A DNA stretch of 62,697 nt, the filler included, from Globobulimina sp. (lineage: Eukaryota), in assembly GCA_003354225.1 (NCBI GenBank). It is 36 parts of 36 records of this genome, joined end to end, with 100 filler letters (N's around TTAATTAATTAA, not from the genome) between each part and the next. Parts side by side here need not be neighbours in the genome. Positions count along the whole stretch, not along the records: positions 1 to 1,646 come from PIVH01013674.1; 35 more parts are not named here. The stretch is one strand, 5' to 3'. A model generated the notes under the pieces. The model worked only from the letters and a program-made list of their open reading frames with translations. It made no database searches and was not told the DNA's origin. A program made the position numbers and the translations under genes. Positions within the stretch are counted from its first letter, which is position 1. Each line of letters opens with the position of its first letter. Positions 1-40,943 of this stretch are shown in pieces.

Positions 1-748
1 TATAAATGGCGAGAGCGGTTTATATGTACAAAATAATAATAATAACAATCCCATTATAAACGCAGGAATCCATGTAATTGGAAACGACACAATGCCGCTA
101 CTTTTAAATTCGCAATCATAATAATTTGAGTTCACAATCACAAATTTTAGCTTTTCCTCAATTACTTCATCAAAAATCTCATCCATTCCACAAAAGGCAG
201 TTTCATCAGAAAATGCAATCTGAAACACAATTATTAATATTTCAGGGATAAATCCAAAGCATAAACACCATGAAAATACTTTTGTAACGGTTGATTTTTG
301 CAGTTTTCTAGATGTTCCATGCAATGAAACGACACACAATGTTAAACAGCTCCACATTAACGCAGAAACACAAGAAAATAAAAAGCGAACCCCATTATCG
401 TGTGTTTCTGTCAATTTCCGGCATGACACTGCTTTACATGTTGATGATTGTGATAGTGCATAATATTCCTCTTGAAATGGTTTATGACCTTCGACATTAA
501 TTGTCATATGTTGCCAGCCTGCGCTCTAATTATAAAAAACATGTTTTTCATATAAGGTATACACATATAATAAACTTAACAACAACAACAGTTCGATTTG
601 CTCCTCCTGGTGTGCTACCTATAAAATTATCATACCGCATAGGCTCATTATCCGTTACAACAACTAAATCACCAGAGATTTCATAAAAGTCATTCAATAC
701 AGCACAAATCATGCAAAACGGAAACAGCAATAGTAACGATATCATCAT
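1..748 (-). CDS. Spliced secreted or membrane-anchored hypothetical protein (about 4 exons, 3' end at window edge)
   Basis: Signal peptide MMISLLLLFPFCMICA. Three GT..AG introns join open exons in frame (NRTVVV|SAGWQH..HDNG|KTAK..IFM|IAFSDE). Hydrophobic C-terminus. Confidence 0.6.
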
Positions 749-987
749 TAATCTAAATACAATCACTGTCATTGCGGCGGTTCGAGTGTCGCAATCACAA
801 TATCTCATTGCACAATGAACGTTGCACATGGTGCTTTTCAAAGGGGTTTTGCTGAAACGATGAAAAATTTGAACGTTGCTATCCTTGCACTCATCAAAGT
901 TCTCTCAAAACAGAAACACAAACACTTTCTTCTACACTTCCCGTTGAAATGATTCTAGTATTTTACCAAAAGGCAGTAATTTCGAGG

Positions 988-1090
988 CTAGGAACGTGTT
1001 TCCAAAAGGGGGCGCGTCTTTGGCGCGAAGCGCCGCGCACCCCGAGGCGGTGGGGATTTGGGCGTTTGGGAGGCGGTGGGGATCGCAATC
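988..1090 (-). mobile_element. GC-rich hairpin followed by CTAG, possible Helitron-type 3' end
   Basis: Minus strand reads GGGGTGCGC-GGCGCTTCGCGCC-AAAGAC-GCGCCCCC, then CTAG about 16 nt later. Direct repeat GAGGCGGTGGGGAT occurs twice. Confidence 0.4.
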
Positions 1091-1096
1091 CATATT

Positions 1097-1160
1097 GTGA
1101 TGATTGCTCAATGAGAGCATCTAATTAAATAAGATTTGGGTCCAAATCCCAATCACCACA
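1097..1160 (+). ncRNA. Minimal tRNA-like element / SINE head, copy 1
   Basis: GTGATGA TT GCTC-AATGA-GAGC, 17-nt anticodon region, TTGGG-TCCAAAT-CCCAA TCACCAC A, then T8. Homologous to 40577-40639. Confidence 0.75.
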
Positions 1161-1277
1161 TTTTTTTTGATTATCCCATGAGTTATTACATTTTTGTTCG
1201 TTTTATATAATGTTTTTTGTTTGTTTTGTTTGTTTTGCGTTTTTCGTTTCTATGTAAAGTGGCATATTATAATTAGA

Positions 1278-1399
1278 AGATAATATCCATTATAAATAAC
1301 ATAATAAAATATCGATTTAGCCAAAATTGCAATGGATTTGTTACCGTAGATTCCATTTTAAAGATCTAATGAGATTTCTATTTATAATGGATATTATCT
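1278..1399. repeat. Perfect 21-bp inverted repeat with 80-bp spacer
   Basis: AGATAATATCCATTATAAATA at 1278-1298 and its reverse complement at 1379-1399. Confidence 0.9.
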
Positions 1400-1457
1400 G
1401 TCATAATTTTAGCAAAAAAAATATAAACAAACCTGTATTAATGCGCCATACGCCAAT

Positions 1458-1526
1458 ATCTCACGCCAGGATTTGAACCTGGATTCCCTGCATAAAACAG
1501 TGCTCTACCAATTGAGCTACGTGAGA
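1458..1526 (-). tRNA. tRNA-like gene with short anticodon arm (possible anticodon UUA)
   Basis: TCTCACG TA GCTC AATTGGTA GAGC A CTG TTTTATG CAG GGAAT CCAGG TTCAAAT CCTGG CGTGAGA T. Acceptor, D and T stems pair perfectly and boxes A/B are canonical. Confidence 0.8.
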
Positions 1527-1646
1527 TTTATGCACCAGCAAATCACAGACAACAAAATGAATATGTTTTGTTGGTATATGGATATAAAAGCTAATGCTGA
1601 GGTGTTCGATAAGATCAGTACAAAACAAAAAAAACCTTTTCGAACA

Positions 1647-3392: not shown

Positions 3393-3492
3393 NNNNNNNN
3401 NNNNNNNNNNNNNNNNNNNNNNNNNNNNNNNNNNNNTTAATTAATTAANNNNNNNNNNNNNNNNNNNNNNNNNNNNNNNNNNNNNNNNNNNN

Positions 3493-4860: not shown

Positions 4861-5253
4861 CTAAATATTCAGTAGCATTAATATTGTAGTTATCTTGCAT
4901 GCAATTCCATGTTTTTTGAGAATTGTGTCAGCTGCTTTGACAGTCACAGATGTCTGAAAAATACAAAACAAATAACTGATTAAAAATTACTCACAAGTTA
5001 CAAATAAGCAACTATAAATAACACGAATGCAATTATTCAAATAAGTCTTTTTTTTCTTGTTAACAATTATCAAATGGAGGCCAATCAAAATCATCTCTAC
5101 GCCCCGGATGTCCAGTACCATCGGATCTATAAATTACTNNNNNNNNNNNNNNNNNNNNNNNNNNNNNNNNNNNNNNNNNNNNTTAATTAATTAANNNNNN
5201 NNNNNNNNNNNNNNNNNNNNNNNNNNNNNNNNNNNNNNTTTCCAACTCACATC

Positions 5254-8400: not shown

Positions 8401-9811
8401 GGTGGGTTCCAATATTTGTGATTGCTATGTGTTTTACTGTCAGTGTTGATGTTGCTATGTTGGTGATAAACAATATGAGTGATTGTAATAAAATATATGT
8501 GTCTATTTCGGTGGGTGCTATTGATATAAATGAGTTTATATTTGTTGGGTGTATTATTCATATTATTGTGTGCTTTATGTTTGAATATGTTGCAGTAAAT
8601 GGCGGTTTACTTACTGTTATGAATCATTTANNNNNNNNNNNNNNNNNNNNNNNNNNNNNNNNNNNNNNNNNNNNTTAATTAATTAANNNNNNNNNNNNNN
8701 NNNNNNNNNNNNNNNNNNNNNNNNNNNNNNACAGTATATGCCTCTTGATAGCTCGGTAATATTCAGAAATTAAACCATTTCGGGTCGCTGATTTTTCCTC
8801 TGATTGCACCCTTTCTTATTTTCTCAAGTTAACCCACTTTTTACACCTCTTTCTACTATTATTATATTGTGATTTTAACGCTCAATTGACGTCAAATCGG
8901 CCGTCTTCTATAAATTTGTCCCATAGAAAATTTATGAGCCAACTATTTGGGCCGATTATTCAATTGGCGATCAATAAGGAGAGAGAACGGACGTTTTCTG
9001 TCGTCGAAATAATTGTTAGTGATGGATTGCTTCATATTAGCGCCTTTTTGGGAAAATTAGCTCCCTTTACGTTTGTATAAGATGGTCGATTTGTCTTCAT
9101 CCTTTATTCATTCTCTTCTTGGCATGAATATACCTATACAATGCATAAATGCTACATGTTACACTTACAGCTATACTATGCATTATCTAGCTAATTACAT
9201 TACGTTTCATTTGTTAAGTTGGACTTTGTTATCCCTGTTGGCTTAATTGTGTGTTCAATTTTAATTATTTTCTTTCAGCCCAACTCTTCTATAACCTCTG
9301 ATCCTCATTCTCCTCCTGTTGATGATTTTTGCTATCCAATTGTCTCCTCTGCTGTGCTTCAGTCTCCTGGTGGACCAATTCCACCCGCCAGTCAGCAATA
9401 CAATAATAATCAATTTGTATCGCAGGAACCGTCCGTGTCACTGTCATCGCCACAATATCAAGCCAGTAAATCATCCGAAGTACAATCACCTAGAGCACTC
9501 ATTTCTCCAAGACAAACAGTAGACGCGGCGAGGTCCAATAATTGCCAAAGAGAAGGGGATATGGATGAACAAGTTGAACTGGAAGTTAGTACAAAATTAA
9601 TGCCGTATTCTGTACACTTCACTATTTTCTTTACATATACCTGTGTCTTACTATTAGATGTTCGCTTTTTAGTGGGGAAAATAAATAAAAAGCTTTTCTA
9701 GTTTTTCTTGTTGCATACTTTTCATGGGGCATTGTTGCGTCATTGGATTTGTCCACATGAAAAGTGGCAAAAAGTATTCATTCTTCAAACTAAAATGCGA
9801 ATGTTCTATTA

Positions 9812-10280
9812 CAGGGTTCGTGCCAATCAGGGGAAACTCAGGGGATTTAAATTGCATCAGGGGATTCGGTGTCTACTCAGGGGATTTTGGCTCGAATAAC
9901 GGAAAATTTTGCTTCTAAAAGGCATTTTGCTCAAAAATGCTGGCCTTTGGCCAGATTCCCCTCCACTGTAGTAAATTTGGCATCTAGAACACCAAACCTC
10001 ACAAAATTTCTGGCCCTCGGCCATAATTGCACTCTAAAAGTCAATTTTATTATCAAAACTGCCATTTGGATTTTGGCATTGCTCAGGGGGAACTCAGGGG
10101 GCCCCTGGCAAGCCTGCGCGCGGTCGGGCGCTCCTCGCCCGCCGGAACTTGGACGGCCGCGTCGCGGCCAAAGCAATTTGCCCTACTAGAAAAACATTTT
10201 TTTTTCACTATATTTGGTCAGGGAATTTTGATTTTGGTCAGGGAAAATGGGATTGCCTGACCAGACCAGTACGAACCCTG
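9812..10280. mobile_element. MITE-like non-autonomous DNA transposon
   Basis: Termini CAGGGTTCGT / ACGAACCCTG, many internal TCAGGG motifs, GC-rich core, no convincing ORF, no clean TSD. Confidence 0.8.
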
Positions 10281-10476
10281 TTGTTATTAAATAATGGCTG
10301 CAAACATACACGGGTGAGGGGGTAATGGGGGTTTATCACCCCCCTCCGTATCAAAATGCAAACCCCCGATCCGCAANNNNNNNNNNNNNNNNNNNNNNNN
10401 NNNNNNNNNNNNNNNNNNNNTTAATTAATTAANNNNNNNNNNNNNNNNNNNNNNNNNNNNNNNNNNNNNNNNNNNN

Positions 10477-10915
10477 TGGAGTATATTTGTTGTGGAATAT
10501 GCAATGTGTTAAGGTTTGGTATACAATTACCTGGGTTTGTAGGTTGATGACAGATATCTTGGCATGAATCGACTGTGCATGCAATGGAACGAATGGTTGT
10601 TGTTGTTGGACAATGCACTGTTATGTTATTACACGCGTCGGAATTATCATTCTCACAATTTCGAATGGTTAATAATGATGACTTGGTTGCATCGATTATC
10701 ATAGAAGTGCATGATTCTTCTTTTGCAATATTACAACTTATAACGCATTTTTTATCTGGTGGACAAATAATAAGTATGTCAAAGCATGATTGGTCTGTAT
10801 TACAATCAACAAAACAATCTTCTGATGATTTACATATAATATCATCACCAGTTGCGTTGTAACTGTAAATTTCAGCATTACAATGCTGTAATATGACTAT
10901 CAGTAGTAAGAGCAT
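10477..10915 (-). CDS. Secreted cysteine-rich protein (partial)
   Basis: Signal peptide MLLLLIVILQHCNA and regularly spaced cysteines. Confidence 0.75.
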
Positions 10916-10984
10916 GATCAGATTTAATTTAGACCGGAAAAATGAAATTGTGGTTGTAAAGTTTTTTCCACACCTCACTCAACA

Positions 10985-12121
10985 ATGGCGTTGACATTAC
11001 AACTTTTAGTAATTATTATTATCTACATACAATGCGAAAGTCAATCACCACAAACAATTGAATGCATTGGAATAGACGCATGCAAGAAACAAACTATCCA
11101 ATGCGATCCATATAAACCGTGTTCCCTACTATGCCATGGCAAAGCCGCATGCTCTGAGGTTATATTCATAGGAACTACCTCCACTGATGTCACTATGCTT
11201 TGTTCGCCAGGTATCTATACACATACATCATCCATTTGTTGATTGACTAAATACCAATGTACAGAGGATTCATGCAAGAAAGCAACGGTGGCATGTGGCA
11301 CTGGCAAGTGTGCCATTGATTGTATTGCCGAAGTGGGCAAAACAGTGTGTACTGAGCTCGACGTCATCATAAACCAAGCCATAAGTTTCCAATGCACCAA
11401 TTCATGCCCTATAGATATCCAACGACTCACATTCACTGTCTCTCCAACTCCATCACCAACACAGTTAACGTTTTTGTATAGAATTCCAAAGTACAAAGGC
11501 AACGTTTTTGTTGACGCATAATTATAAAACAAATATTTTTTCTATAGCAATCCATCCATAACTCCGACAAAAAAGCCATCCATTTCTACAACATCACCCA
11601 CACGCAATCCAACAAAATCCCCCACATATAATCCAACACCAAGTCCATCCAAATATGCCTCTTTGACGCCGACAGCTTTTCCTACTGAGTATCCAACCGA
11701 AATAGCTACAATTTCACCCACATATATACCCACCACATATCCTACACAAAATCCAAGCAATCGGCCTACAAATATACCAATGACAATACATCCAATTATA
11801 TATCCTACACAGATACCAACACCAATACCTACAGCATACCCAACCATTACACCTACAAATAATCCAAGCAGCACTCCATCCGTCCATCCAACACCGTATG
11901 TTGCAATGTATTCCATTCATACATATATATTATCTACAAATTATATCCAGAAATCCGACTGGAGATCCTATGGCCGAACCGACACCAAACCCAACACCAA
12001 ATCCGACCAAACTGCCAACAATAACCGCCCCGACATGGTTGTCGACAGATTTTCCAAGCTCTAATCCAGTCTCTGTGTCACCTACAACATCGCCGTTAGA
12101 TGACCCAAGCATAGCACCTAC
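10985..12121 (+). CDS. Secreted Cys-rich protein with mucin-like PTxxPT stalk (spliced, partial)
   Basis: Signal peptide, Cys-rich exons, P/T repeats. Introns near 11211-11265, 11466-11546 and 11896-11950. Confidence 0.8.
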
Positions 12122-12221
12122 NNNNNNNNNNNNNNNNNNNNNNNNNNNNNNNNNNNNNNNNNNNNTTAATTAATTAANNNNNNNNNNNNNNNNNNNNNNN
12201 NNNNNNNNNNNNNNNNNNNNN

Positions 12222-12884
12222 GGCTTCATGCCAAATGCCGGTAAAACAACCATAAAAACTGATACCGGTAATAATTATAATCATTATAACACATTGAATA
12301 CAAATAATAATCAGCCTCAACATAAACCCAATCAATCCACTCAATCCACTCAATCCACTCAATCACATTCGACAAATAGTTCAAATTCATCCGTAAAATA
12401 TAAAATTGTTCCAAAAAGTAAAAAAAGCGATAAATCCTTTTCTAAATATTCAGCAAAGCCGTTGCCAATGCCATCTGTTACCAAATCAAAACCATTGCCA
12501 TTACCATCCATTAATAATAATAATATTTATAATAAAAATAAGAATGGCGATGATAAATATGGAGCTAAATTACATCAAAATATGCGAAGAAATAGCAATG
12601 AAAATATCCCATCATATAATTATAACAATGCAATTGGCCAAAACCCACCAAACAAATCAAACGAATCAAATGAATCAAATGGAAGATCGATAGAGTCATT
12701 ATTTTCTAATGAATATGAGAACCTTTTAAACGCGAATTTTGAAATTCCATCAAATGGCACAAAATCTCAATATCAAGAAATCCGGATTGAAATAAATAAT
12801 TTGTATGATATGGACGTGGGCGCACTCGAAGCTTTTTATGTTGAACAGTTAAAAATGTTGGACGAAATGTTAGCTCAAATGTAA
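12222..12884 (+). CDS. Asn/Ser-rich low-complexity protein C-terminus
   Basis: Frame open from the contig start to TAA 12884. Confidence 0.7.
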   Translation, partial: GFMPNAGKTTIKTDTGNNYNHYNTLNTNNNQPQHKPNQSTQSTQSTQSHSTNSSNSSVKYKIVPKSKKSDKSFSKYSAKPLPMPSVTKSKPLPLPSINNNNIYNKNKNGDDKYGAKLHQNMRRNSNENIPSYNYNNAIGQNPPNKSNESNESNGRSIESLFSNEYENLLNANFEIPSNGTKSQYQEIRIEINNLYDMDVGALEAFYVEQLKMLDEMLAQM

Positions 12885-21115: not shown

Positions 21116-22379
21116 ATGGGTATCTTTTTCAATAAACCTCTGCTGGAACGACAGCTAACAGACGAACTGCGACGTGACAAAAAAATTGATAAACTGAAAA
21201 GGAAGGTACTGATATTAGGTCCAACACACTCAGGTAACTTATACATAAATATAAATTATTGCATTCTCCACTCCTTATTATTTCAAAAAAGGGAAATCAA
21301 CAATATTCAATCAATTAAAGTACATTCACGGAAATGGATTTACTGCCAACGAATATATTGAAGCAAAACATTCGATATGTTCTTATGTTATAGAATCAAT
21401 GCAACATATTATTGAATGTGTTGAAGAATACGAGAAATTCAAACAGTTTCCCTTCACTAAATTTAGTATAAACACCGAAGGAAAATTATCTGCGGAATTT
21501 ATAAAATCATTATCGGTGCAACAGGCGAATCTGAGTGAATTAATAATTTATCATATTGAGATTTTATGGAAACAGAAATCAATTAAAAAAGTTGTGGCCA
21601 ATGCGAGTAAATATTATCTGGACGATTCATGTCAATACTTTTTCAAATCCGAAAATATGACAAGATTTAAGTCACAAAATTATGTCCCTTCTGATCAAGA
21701 TATAATTCAATTGCGAATAAAGTGCAATGGATTCAATGAAACAAACATTCAAATGGGCTTTGAGAATTTTACTGTGTATGACCTCAATTATAAGCCAGAT
21801 ACTTGTAATATGCGTAAAATAATGGGCTGTTTTGTTGGTGTTACAGCGATTATATTCGTTGCATCACTCAGCTGCTTTGATGAGCAAATATTTGAAGATG
21901 AAAAAAGTTATCAACAAAAATTGAAATGGAAGCAATCGCTGACTTATGTTGAAGGGTTTGTGGGTGATGATATATTGGGTGTTATTTTATCCTTTGTTGG
22001 GTATCCACGCAATGCAATGCACGATGCATTGGATGTATTTGAGGAATTATGTGATAATGATTGGTTTAGAACAATTCCAATCATATTAATGTTGAACAAA
22101 TCTGATCTATTTTCGCAGAAAATGGAGAAGATTCAAGCCAGTAACGACAGAATCGATGGATTCAATGTTTGTTTCCCAGAATTTAAAGAAACATGTGATT
22201 ACATAAAATGTAGTAACTACATTAGTCAACAATTTAGGAAAAGGAATAAAAGGAAAGTTTATAGAAAAATATTCCAACATTTGGTCAATGGAACGGAAAC
22301 AAGCATTATGAGAAAAATACTGAGAGACGTGCAGGAGATTGTAATTTCTACAGCTTTGGATCATGCTGGAATATTCTGA
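21116..22379 (+). CDS. Divergent heterotrimeric G-protein alpha subunit; intron 21234-21291
   Basis: VLILGPTHSG|KSTIFNQLKYIH, YVPSDQDI, VTAIIFVASLS, WFRTIPIILMLNKSDLF. Confidence 0.93.
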
Positions 22380-40576: not shown

Positions 40577-40639
40577 GATGTGATAGCTCATTGAGAGCAT
40601 CTTATTAAAGAAGATTTGGGTTCAAATCCCATCATCACA
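40577..40639 (+). ncRNA. Minimal tRNA-like element / SINE head, copy 2
   Basis: TAGCTCATTGAGAGC ATCTT-ATTAAAG-AAGAT TTGGGTTCAAATCCCA TCATCACA, then a T-run. Confidence 0.75.
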
Positions 40640-40943
40640 TTTTTCTATTTATTTTTTTGTAATTTATTCTCTGCTTTTTGAGTCTCAAATTTCTGTTTTT
40701 TGTTTCTATTTTATATGGCATGTTTTTCGTTTCTATTTTATTAAATAAAACACTTCCATGTCTGCTATAAAAAACAAATAAAGTTACTTTTATGGCGTTT
40801 TTTGGACATAAAATAAGATTGTTTCCAGCTTGTACCATCAATTCTGGACGTGTACCAACTGCATTCAGGTTCTGAAACAAAAGTGATCGAAGACATGAAT
40901 TTGCAATAAACAGTCTTTTTCAAAAAAAAGGTACACTGTGTGA

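Follow-up and report, generated by a model that had tools for sequence, protein, structure and literature searches.

A tRNA-shaped module with a shortened anticodon arm in Globobulimina sp., probably one copy of a dispersed, non-decoding tRNA-derived repeat

The window analysed here, i.e. the whole stretch of 62,697 bases, is composed of 36 contigs of 1,643-1,646 bp each, sorted by length and separated by 35 artificial linkers, found by script, of the form N44-TTAATTAATTAA-N44 (e.g. 1647-1746, 3393-3492 and 5139-5238), which place artificial TAA stops in all frames. The tRNA-like module described below is physically linked to positions 1..1646 only, and the neighbouring 'genes' on the other contigs are unlinked to it. 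The window contigs are eukaryotic. The host is AT-rich, GC content being ~23-38% in 2-kb windows across the stretch, and nine of the ten ORFs scanned have a Pfam match, eight of which are named here: G-alpha, tubulin-tyrosine-ligase, GH47, gamma-glutamyltranspeptidase, ankyrin, CTLH, EF-hand and histidine-phosphatase. A search with the G-alpha protein retrieved seven relatives, of which the best is only 64% identical and five come from EukProt alone; the host is therefore a poorly sampled eukaryote. On the contig that carries the module, a gene coding for a membrane-like protein without Pfam match is encoded on the minus strand (1-830). It is interrupted by a 55-nt intron with GT..AG ends (526-580, minus strand), for which spliced contigs are present in three sequencing runs; some spliced contigs skip 526-584 instead of 526-580, with four other letters between. 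The G-alpha gene, on contig 13, also has a 55-nt gap between two exons according to tblastn (window ~21236-21290), and short introns of ~55 nt may be typical of the host organism.

At the other end of this contig, the following elements are present:

1458..1526, minus strand: tRNA-shaped module of 69 nt (ARAGORN, Rfam RF00005 and lowest-energy fold)
1488..1500, minus strand: shortened anticodon arm, CTG-TTTTATG-CAG (sequence, Rfam alignment and fold)

ARAGORN predicted a single tRNA in the whole window, at 1457-1527 on the minus strand, under the label 'tRNA-Stop, anticodon tta', and the Rfam family RF00005 matched 1458-1526 on the same strand over model positions 1-71 with 53.9 bits (gathering score, 29; E = 8.4e-09 for the whole window). 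The module includes: (i) an acceptor stem, TCTCACG/CGTGAGA, paired at 7/7 positions, (ii) a D stem, GCTC/GAGC, paired at 4/4 positions, whose loop, AATTGGTA, contains GG, (iii) a T stem, CCAGG/CCTGG, paired at 5/5 positions and closing a TTCAAAT loop, and (iv) a variable region of 5 nt (GGAAT) and a T (U) as discriminator. The 7-bp acceptor stem, the D arm with GG and the 5-bp T stem with its T-loop are those of a canonical tRNA, and the perfect 7-, 4- and 5-bp acceptor, D and T stems described in the initial annotation were recovered on the minus strand from the sequence itself, ARAGORN, Rfam and RNAfold. Indeed, the RNAfold minimum of the module is a cloverleaf of -24.9 kcal/mol, as compared with a mean of -14.9 for 200 shuffled sequences (z = -3.6), none of which folds as well. 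In textbook numbering, U8, A14, G18-G19, G53-T54-T55-C56, A58 and C61 are present and positions 15/48 are an A-U pair, as in the acceptor-T elbow of a tRNA. The letters found at the usual places of the A box and the B box are kept in the module.

The sole shortfall in the Rfam alignment is the anticodon arm, where five letters stand against nine hidden model positions. Indeed, this arm measures 13 nt versus 17 nt normally, in accordance with the earlier description of an arm 4 nt short. RNAfold closes it as a 4-bp stem, the fourth pair being U.G, with a 5-nt loop, which is the alternative that the initial annotation had given in brackets beside a 3-bp stem. Since the lowest-energy fold has 4 bp and a 5-nt loop, 'UUA' is seen at the anticodon place only if a 7-nt loop is forced, and according to the folding model this anticodon is an artefact of imposing such a loop. 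By comparison, a review describes the anticodon stem as consistently 5 bp and the loop as 7 nt (PMC7609411), and a purine at position 37 is called 'strictly conserved' in the abstract of another paper (PMC7812866). The window arm has neither the 5-bp stem nor the 7-nt loop, the arms of other copies being 13 or 14 nt long, and nominal position 37, for which a U had been pointed out as a caveat, is indeed U in the window and C, still a pyrimidine, in the second copy described below.

The module is one copy of a multi-copy repeat. A scan of metagenomes identified one locus, on a contig from another project that is unrelated to the window contig (hereafter L001). In this copy, ARAGORN again calls anticodon tta and Rfam gives a tRNA with 53.7 bits. 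Positions 550-786 of L001 share 91% identity with 1418-1646 of the window; the tRNA modules are identical at 68 of 69 positions, and neither copy has lost a stem or an elbow letter. In the flanks and in L001, the tRNA family alone was reported by Rfam. Around the module, the shared unit is organised as follows, identities being those between the window and L001, the two full copies read:

1605..1646, minus strand: distal upstream block, 41/42 identical plus one T-run length difference, cut by the contig end
1578..1604, minus strand: variable patch inside the unit, with 17 matches, 10 substitutions and 9 gap columns
1527..1577, minus strand: proximal upstream block, 51/51 identical, forming an 8-bp hairpin in the fold of the whole unit
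1422..1457, minus strand: 3' trailer of 36 nt, 33/36 identical
1414..1421, minus strand: run of eight T on the tRNA strand, the first run of at least four T downstream of the module, where the unit shared by the copies has its 3' edge

The repeat unit is thus at least 229 bp long (1418-1646), with at least 125 nt shared upstream of the tRNA, and runs off the contig end; a loose end in run X1 (see below) continues past the end of the window contig as L001 does. At the other edge, L001 has four T where the window has eight, and the likeness between the two sequences stops at this T-run, none being found beyond. The lowest-energy fold of the whole 232-nt unit still contains the cloverleaf.

Contigs of four public runs (X1, X5, X6 and X8), X1 being the best DNA run, were aligned to window 1..1646. 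In X1, two contigs without any difference cover the exon part (58-984) at a depth of ~5, whereas summed depth, which according to the tool's own warning is no copy number, amounts to 836 and 873 in the bins 1431-1485 and 1486-1540, to 352-505 in the upstream flank (1541-1646) and to 227 in the bin that holds the downstream edge. Other tRNA genes may contribute contigs to the depth over the D and T arms, but they cannot account for that of the flanks. The depth of the flanks, together with the 4-9 variant contigs found in X1 at each variable site, therefore indicates many copies. These copies are dispersed, insofar as the flanks of the window copy and of L001, the two full copies, are unrelated beyond the T-run and summed depth reaches ~840-870 versus ~5. 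A BLAST search of 900-1646 against all 36 contigs of the window found no further copy of the module. Among bacterial and archaeal genomes, 0 contained the D arm with the T arm and 0 contained the T arm with the 3' acceptor strand, and viral contigs scanned for the module gave 0 and 0 matches. The multi-copy nature of the unit with its conserved flanks, as well as its linkage to 1..1646 only, lay beyond the view of the initial annotation.

As regards transcripts, run X6, guessed to be RNA, contains a 169-nt contig with a depth of 3.5 over 1462-1570, and run X8, also guessed to be RNA, is without a contig over 1376-1646; none of the listed runs is on record as RNA. In L001, imperfect tandem copies of a motif of ~18-38 nt (1020-1113) are located ~360 nt upstream of the tRNA-like module, and this contig displays neither terminal inverted repeats nor ORFs convincing enough to assign it to a transposon class. 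The module was also considered as a retroelement primer, and this idea was rejected: the only window site complementary to its 3' end plus CCA is the gene itself, with 3 mismatches.

The short arm is the normal state of the repeat family. The arm is likewise 13 nt long in L001, an independent metagenome contig, where a single loop letter differs (C instead of U at nominal position 37), and the sole length variant listed in the arm among the run contigs aligned to the stretch is an extra A behind 1493. With this arm in L001 and just one length variant among the run contigs, the short arm, which the initial annotation had proposed to verify, is no assembly slip. In X1, a change of A to G at 1497 accounts for 212/764 of the depth (9 contigs) and converts, on the tRNA strand, the U.G pair into C-G, and the extra A behind 1493 accounts for 134/1,007 of the depth (5 contigs) and lengthens the loop by one letter. 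The single contig of run X5, which bears another organism code (organism B), has both the 1497 A>G change and the extra A, its arm thus being 14 nt long, and the single contig of run X6, with a third organism code, has neither. The window, L001 and the 1497 A>G variant all retain U33-U34-U35-A36. Both variable sites listed within the 69-nt module are situated in the anticodon loop, and in the rest of the module no change among the listed variants reaches a tenth of the depth. Variant density is nevertheless similar, with 2 sites over the 69 nt of the module and 5 listed sites over ~165 nt of flanking sequence, so that the case for a special constraint on the cloverleaf, as drawn from variation confined to the loop, is weak.

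Furthermore, a second tRNA-like repeat is located on the same contig at 1092-1168, on the plus strand, 250 nt away, with a relative at ~40581-40736 on the plus strand (contig 24). Besides a weak anticodon region, it comprises an acceptor-like stem and two hairpins, one GCTC/GAGC and the other T-arm-like; the T-arm-like loop reads TCCAAAT at 1092-1168 and TTCAAAT in the contig-24 copy. A T-run follows directly, and then a T-rich body. Summed depth on the contig peaks at this repeat (3,839 in X1 and 385 in X8). It received no ARAGORN or Rfam call, Rfam matches over 900-1320 being at chance level only (E = 1.9-9.6). It looks like a SINE-like family, and the presence of a second tRNA-like repeat with its own T-run, recurring on another contig, suggests that tRNA-derived repeats are a feature of this genome.

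Taken together, these data make it probable that 1458-1526 is one copy of a young, dispersed, multi-copy, tRNA-derived repeat that does not decode, in a host with a standard-looking code. The repeat unit is probably a Pol III unit. Pol III would transcribe it from the internal boxes, and transcription would end at the T-run 36 nt downstream, which would act as a Pol III terminator. RNase P and RNase Z could then trim the transcript to a tRNA-like small RNA. The trimmed arm would be unable to present an anticodon, so that decoding would not occur, and charging would presumably be absent. A recent spread, by retroposition or by DNA duplication, could have left the stems undecayed. As an alternative to suppression, the initial annotation had suggested a non-decoding tRNA-shaped RNA whose stems are undecayed because of 'selection or youth'. 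This suggestion fits; in the comparison of the window with L001 the flanks are as conserved as the tRNA module, and since the tRNA is no better conserved than its flanks, youth is enough to explain the intact stems. Some observations do not sit easily with the reading as a young repeat: the at least 125 nt conserved upstream of the tRNA do not suit a classical SINE, both listed module variants fall in the anticodon loop, so that the remaining cloverleaf could be constrained, and neither a target-site duplication nor a tail was seen in the two full copies read.

Among known systems, the unit resembles tRNA-derived SINEs and amplified tRNA pseudogene families of eukaryotes in being multi-copy and dispersed, in having a tRNA module with A- and B-box letters that would not decode, and in the near identity of its young copies. 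The tRNA head is the 5' end of a SINE, whereas here the unit is conserved for at least 125 nt upstream of the tRNA (51/51 and 41/42 in the two upstream blocks). Moreover, the shared part stops at the T-run 36 nt downstream, with no body, A-rich tail or target-site duplication seen short of the contig end, beyond which the 5' end of the unit lies, and the cloverleaf of the unit, unlike theirs, is fully intact save for the anticodon arm.

The main rival of the repeat reading is a selected tRNA mimic of the mascRNA type. On this hypothesis, which we hold to be unlikely though better placed than the others discussed below, the RNA or the 36-nt trailer would be functional after cleavage by RNase P and RNase Z, and the trimmed arm would serve to avoid translation. 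Several features agree with it: stems and elbow letters are intact in both copies, the listed variants of the module are confined to the anticodon loop, where one of them (U.G to C-G) keeps the 4-bp stem, the T-run bounds the unit, and the cloverleaf persists when the whole unit of 232 nt is folded. A mascRNA family exists in Rfam, which reports RF00005 alone at the module, and no sequence relation to mascRNA or menRNA was seen. These RNAs, whose D region is small and whose anticodon-equivalent stem is longer, are cut by RNase P from the 3' ends of long Pol II transcripts, each from a single locus, and the unit differs from them in its canonical D arm, its shorter stem, its multiple copies and its own T-run. 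The likeness is one of shape only: mascRNA too has tRNA-like acceptor and T arms, which form an elbow without a proper anticodon loop, the anticodon-equivalent loop being compact, and mimics of the mascRNA and menRNA type are not aminoacylated (PMC11693755). With flanks as conserved as the module, youth alone suffices to account for the intact cloverleaf. Paralogs had been proposed as a source of compensatory changes; a second copy, L001, was indeed found, but the two sequences are without stem variation and accordingly show no such change. A high copy number with unrelated flanks is, furthermore, typical of mobile or duplicated DNA and not of a single-function gene. A more novel scenario, which we consider doubtful, is a high-copy family of Pol III units in a little-studied protist lineage, each giving a mimic with a fully tRNA-like elbow, acceptor end and discriminator but with its anticodon arm trimmed to 4 bp and a 5-nt loop, and selected as a decoy, as a primer or as a source of small RNAs from the trailer. 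If such a family existed, its RNA could go through cleavage by RNase P and RNase Z, CCA addition and export and yet avoid decoding, and the second tRNA-like family in the genome would be its sister.

Another origin, which appears improbable, would be a tRNA-Trp gene of organelle or bacterial type, transferred to the nucleus and amplified there after losing part of the anticodon arm. In a phage collection, 18 of the top 25 matches are tRNA-Trp(cca), the other 7 being unannotated; these matches are 79-80% identical over positions 4-65, with 4 additional nt in the phage gene. Likewise, the six matches listed for E. coli are all tRNA-Trp, but they are not significant (E = 6, 41% of the query). The collections searched comprise phages, plasmids and E. 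coli only and have little bearing on a eukaryote's own tRNAs, the likeness is concentrated in the widely shared D and T arms, whereas the discriminator and the top of the acceptor stem differ, and neither of the two arm combinations occurs in the bacterial and archaeal genomes scanned. On sequence likeness, a bacterial-type tRNA-Trp parentage of the module would thus be a weak lead.

A working ochre suppressor, i.e. a tRNA that would read through UAA by means of the anticodon UUA in a 7-nt loop on a 3-bp stem, is very unlikely. In its favour, ARAGORN calls anticodon tta in both copies, and U33-U34-U35-A36 is shared by them and by the 1497 A>G variant. The likeness to natural or laboratory ochre suppressor tRNAs consists in UUA letters at the anticodon place if a 7-nt loop is imposed. 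Unlike in these tRNAs, the stem would be 3 bp, position 37 is a pyrimidine (U or C) and loop length is variable, with an extra letter in some copies. The tRNA-Trp species with a 4-bp anticodon stem, which were reportedly first described in a Nature paper of 2023, keep a 7-nt loop and the CCA anticodon and are found where UGA means Trp. In the module, by contrast, the favoured loop has 5 nt and is without CCA, and the arm is short by 4 nt, not by 2. The two have in common a short anticodon stem in an otherwise normal cloverleaf, as described for tRNA-Trp(CCA) of Blastocrithidia, some ciliates and bacteria; shortened (4-bp) stems are reported to change stop-codon reading in some protists and bacteria, and the 4-bp-stem tRNAs known to do so are tRNA-Trp(CCA) (PMC13092985).

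The genetic code of the host looks standard on indirect evidence, with no sign of stops used as sense codons. The eight Pfam-matched ORFs amount to 3,059 codons without any in-frame stop. The G-alpha gene aligns with a relative over 369 + 40 residues without a stop and without an in-frame TGA that would be read as Trp, and ends at TGA where its 64%-identical relative ends. The earlier remark that genes in this window end normally at TAA is correct for 7 of the 11 ORFs that close in real sequence, but 2 others end at TGA and 2 at TAG, and 7 of the 18 ORFs checked end in a linker. Relaxing the stop sets raised the summed longest frames from 9,908 to 12,295; an alternative genetic code was rejected as the explanation, the gains on the five contigs inspected being either not protein-like or located past the recognisable end of a protein. 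One frame of contig 6 (window 8731-10376) is free of TGA over 548 codons, yet contains TAA and TAG; its translation is not protein-like and we took it as chance or low complexity. In these indirect tests, which cover 59 kb of one genome, no sign of UAA as sense or of read-through was found, and many active copies of a suppressor would presumably harm a standard-code genome. The fold with 4 bp and a 5-nt loop, the variation of this loop among copies, the lack of in-frame stops and the TGA end of G-alpha together leave the suppressor reading put forward in the initial annotation unsupported.

A one-off artefact or a lone pseudogene, i.e. a faulty assembly or one decayed tRNA gene that has lost 4 nt, is equally improbable, for although the locus lies on an unplaced contig of 1,646 bp made up largely of repeats, the short arm is also present in L001 from another project, arms of 13 or 14 nt occur in contigs of runs with three organism codes, depth greatly exceeds that of a single copy and conservation extends to the flanks. 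One contig of run X1 (2,256 nt, depth 9) matches 1456-1531 with 3 other and 7 extra letters and may be a full-length relative; the near-identical full-length tRNA elsewhere that had been named as a refuting case is hinted at by this contig but not demonstrated.

Were the module a suppressor tRNA, it would point to a new route to stop-codon read-through, which the evidence opposes. The practical consequence is rather one of caution: tRNA finders label this repeat 'tRNA-Stop (tta)' and are likely to put the same label on every copy in the genome, and copies mislabelled in this way could be mistaken for evidence that a poorly known eukaryote has suppressor tRNAs or an altered genetic code. The module family and the 1092-1168 family are candidates for new tRNA-derived repeats of an under-sampled lineage and could possibly be used as markers. 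Both also provide a means of examining how far a tRNA can be reduced with its Pol III boxes and processing signals still in place.

The contig that carries the module contains further repeated sequences. A perfect 21-bp inverted repeat (1278-1298 and 1379-1399), possibly a MITE-like hairpin, has 80 nt between its arms and is separated by 15 nt from the T-run at the end of the tRNA unit. Its inner part, 1315-1365, has a 51-nt match in long contigs of X5, X6 and X8 (879-2,178 nt), which then diverge from the window. Finally, 1010-1085 forms a GC-rich island in this AT-rich contig and includes a 14-nt direct repeat, GAGGCGGTGGGGAT, at 1044 and 1070.
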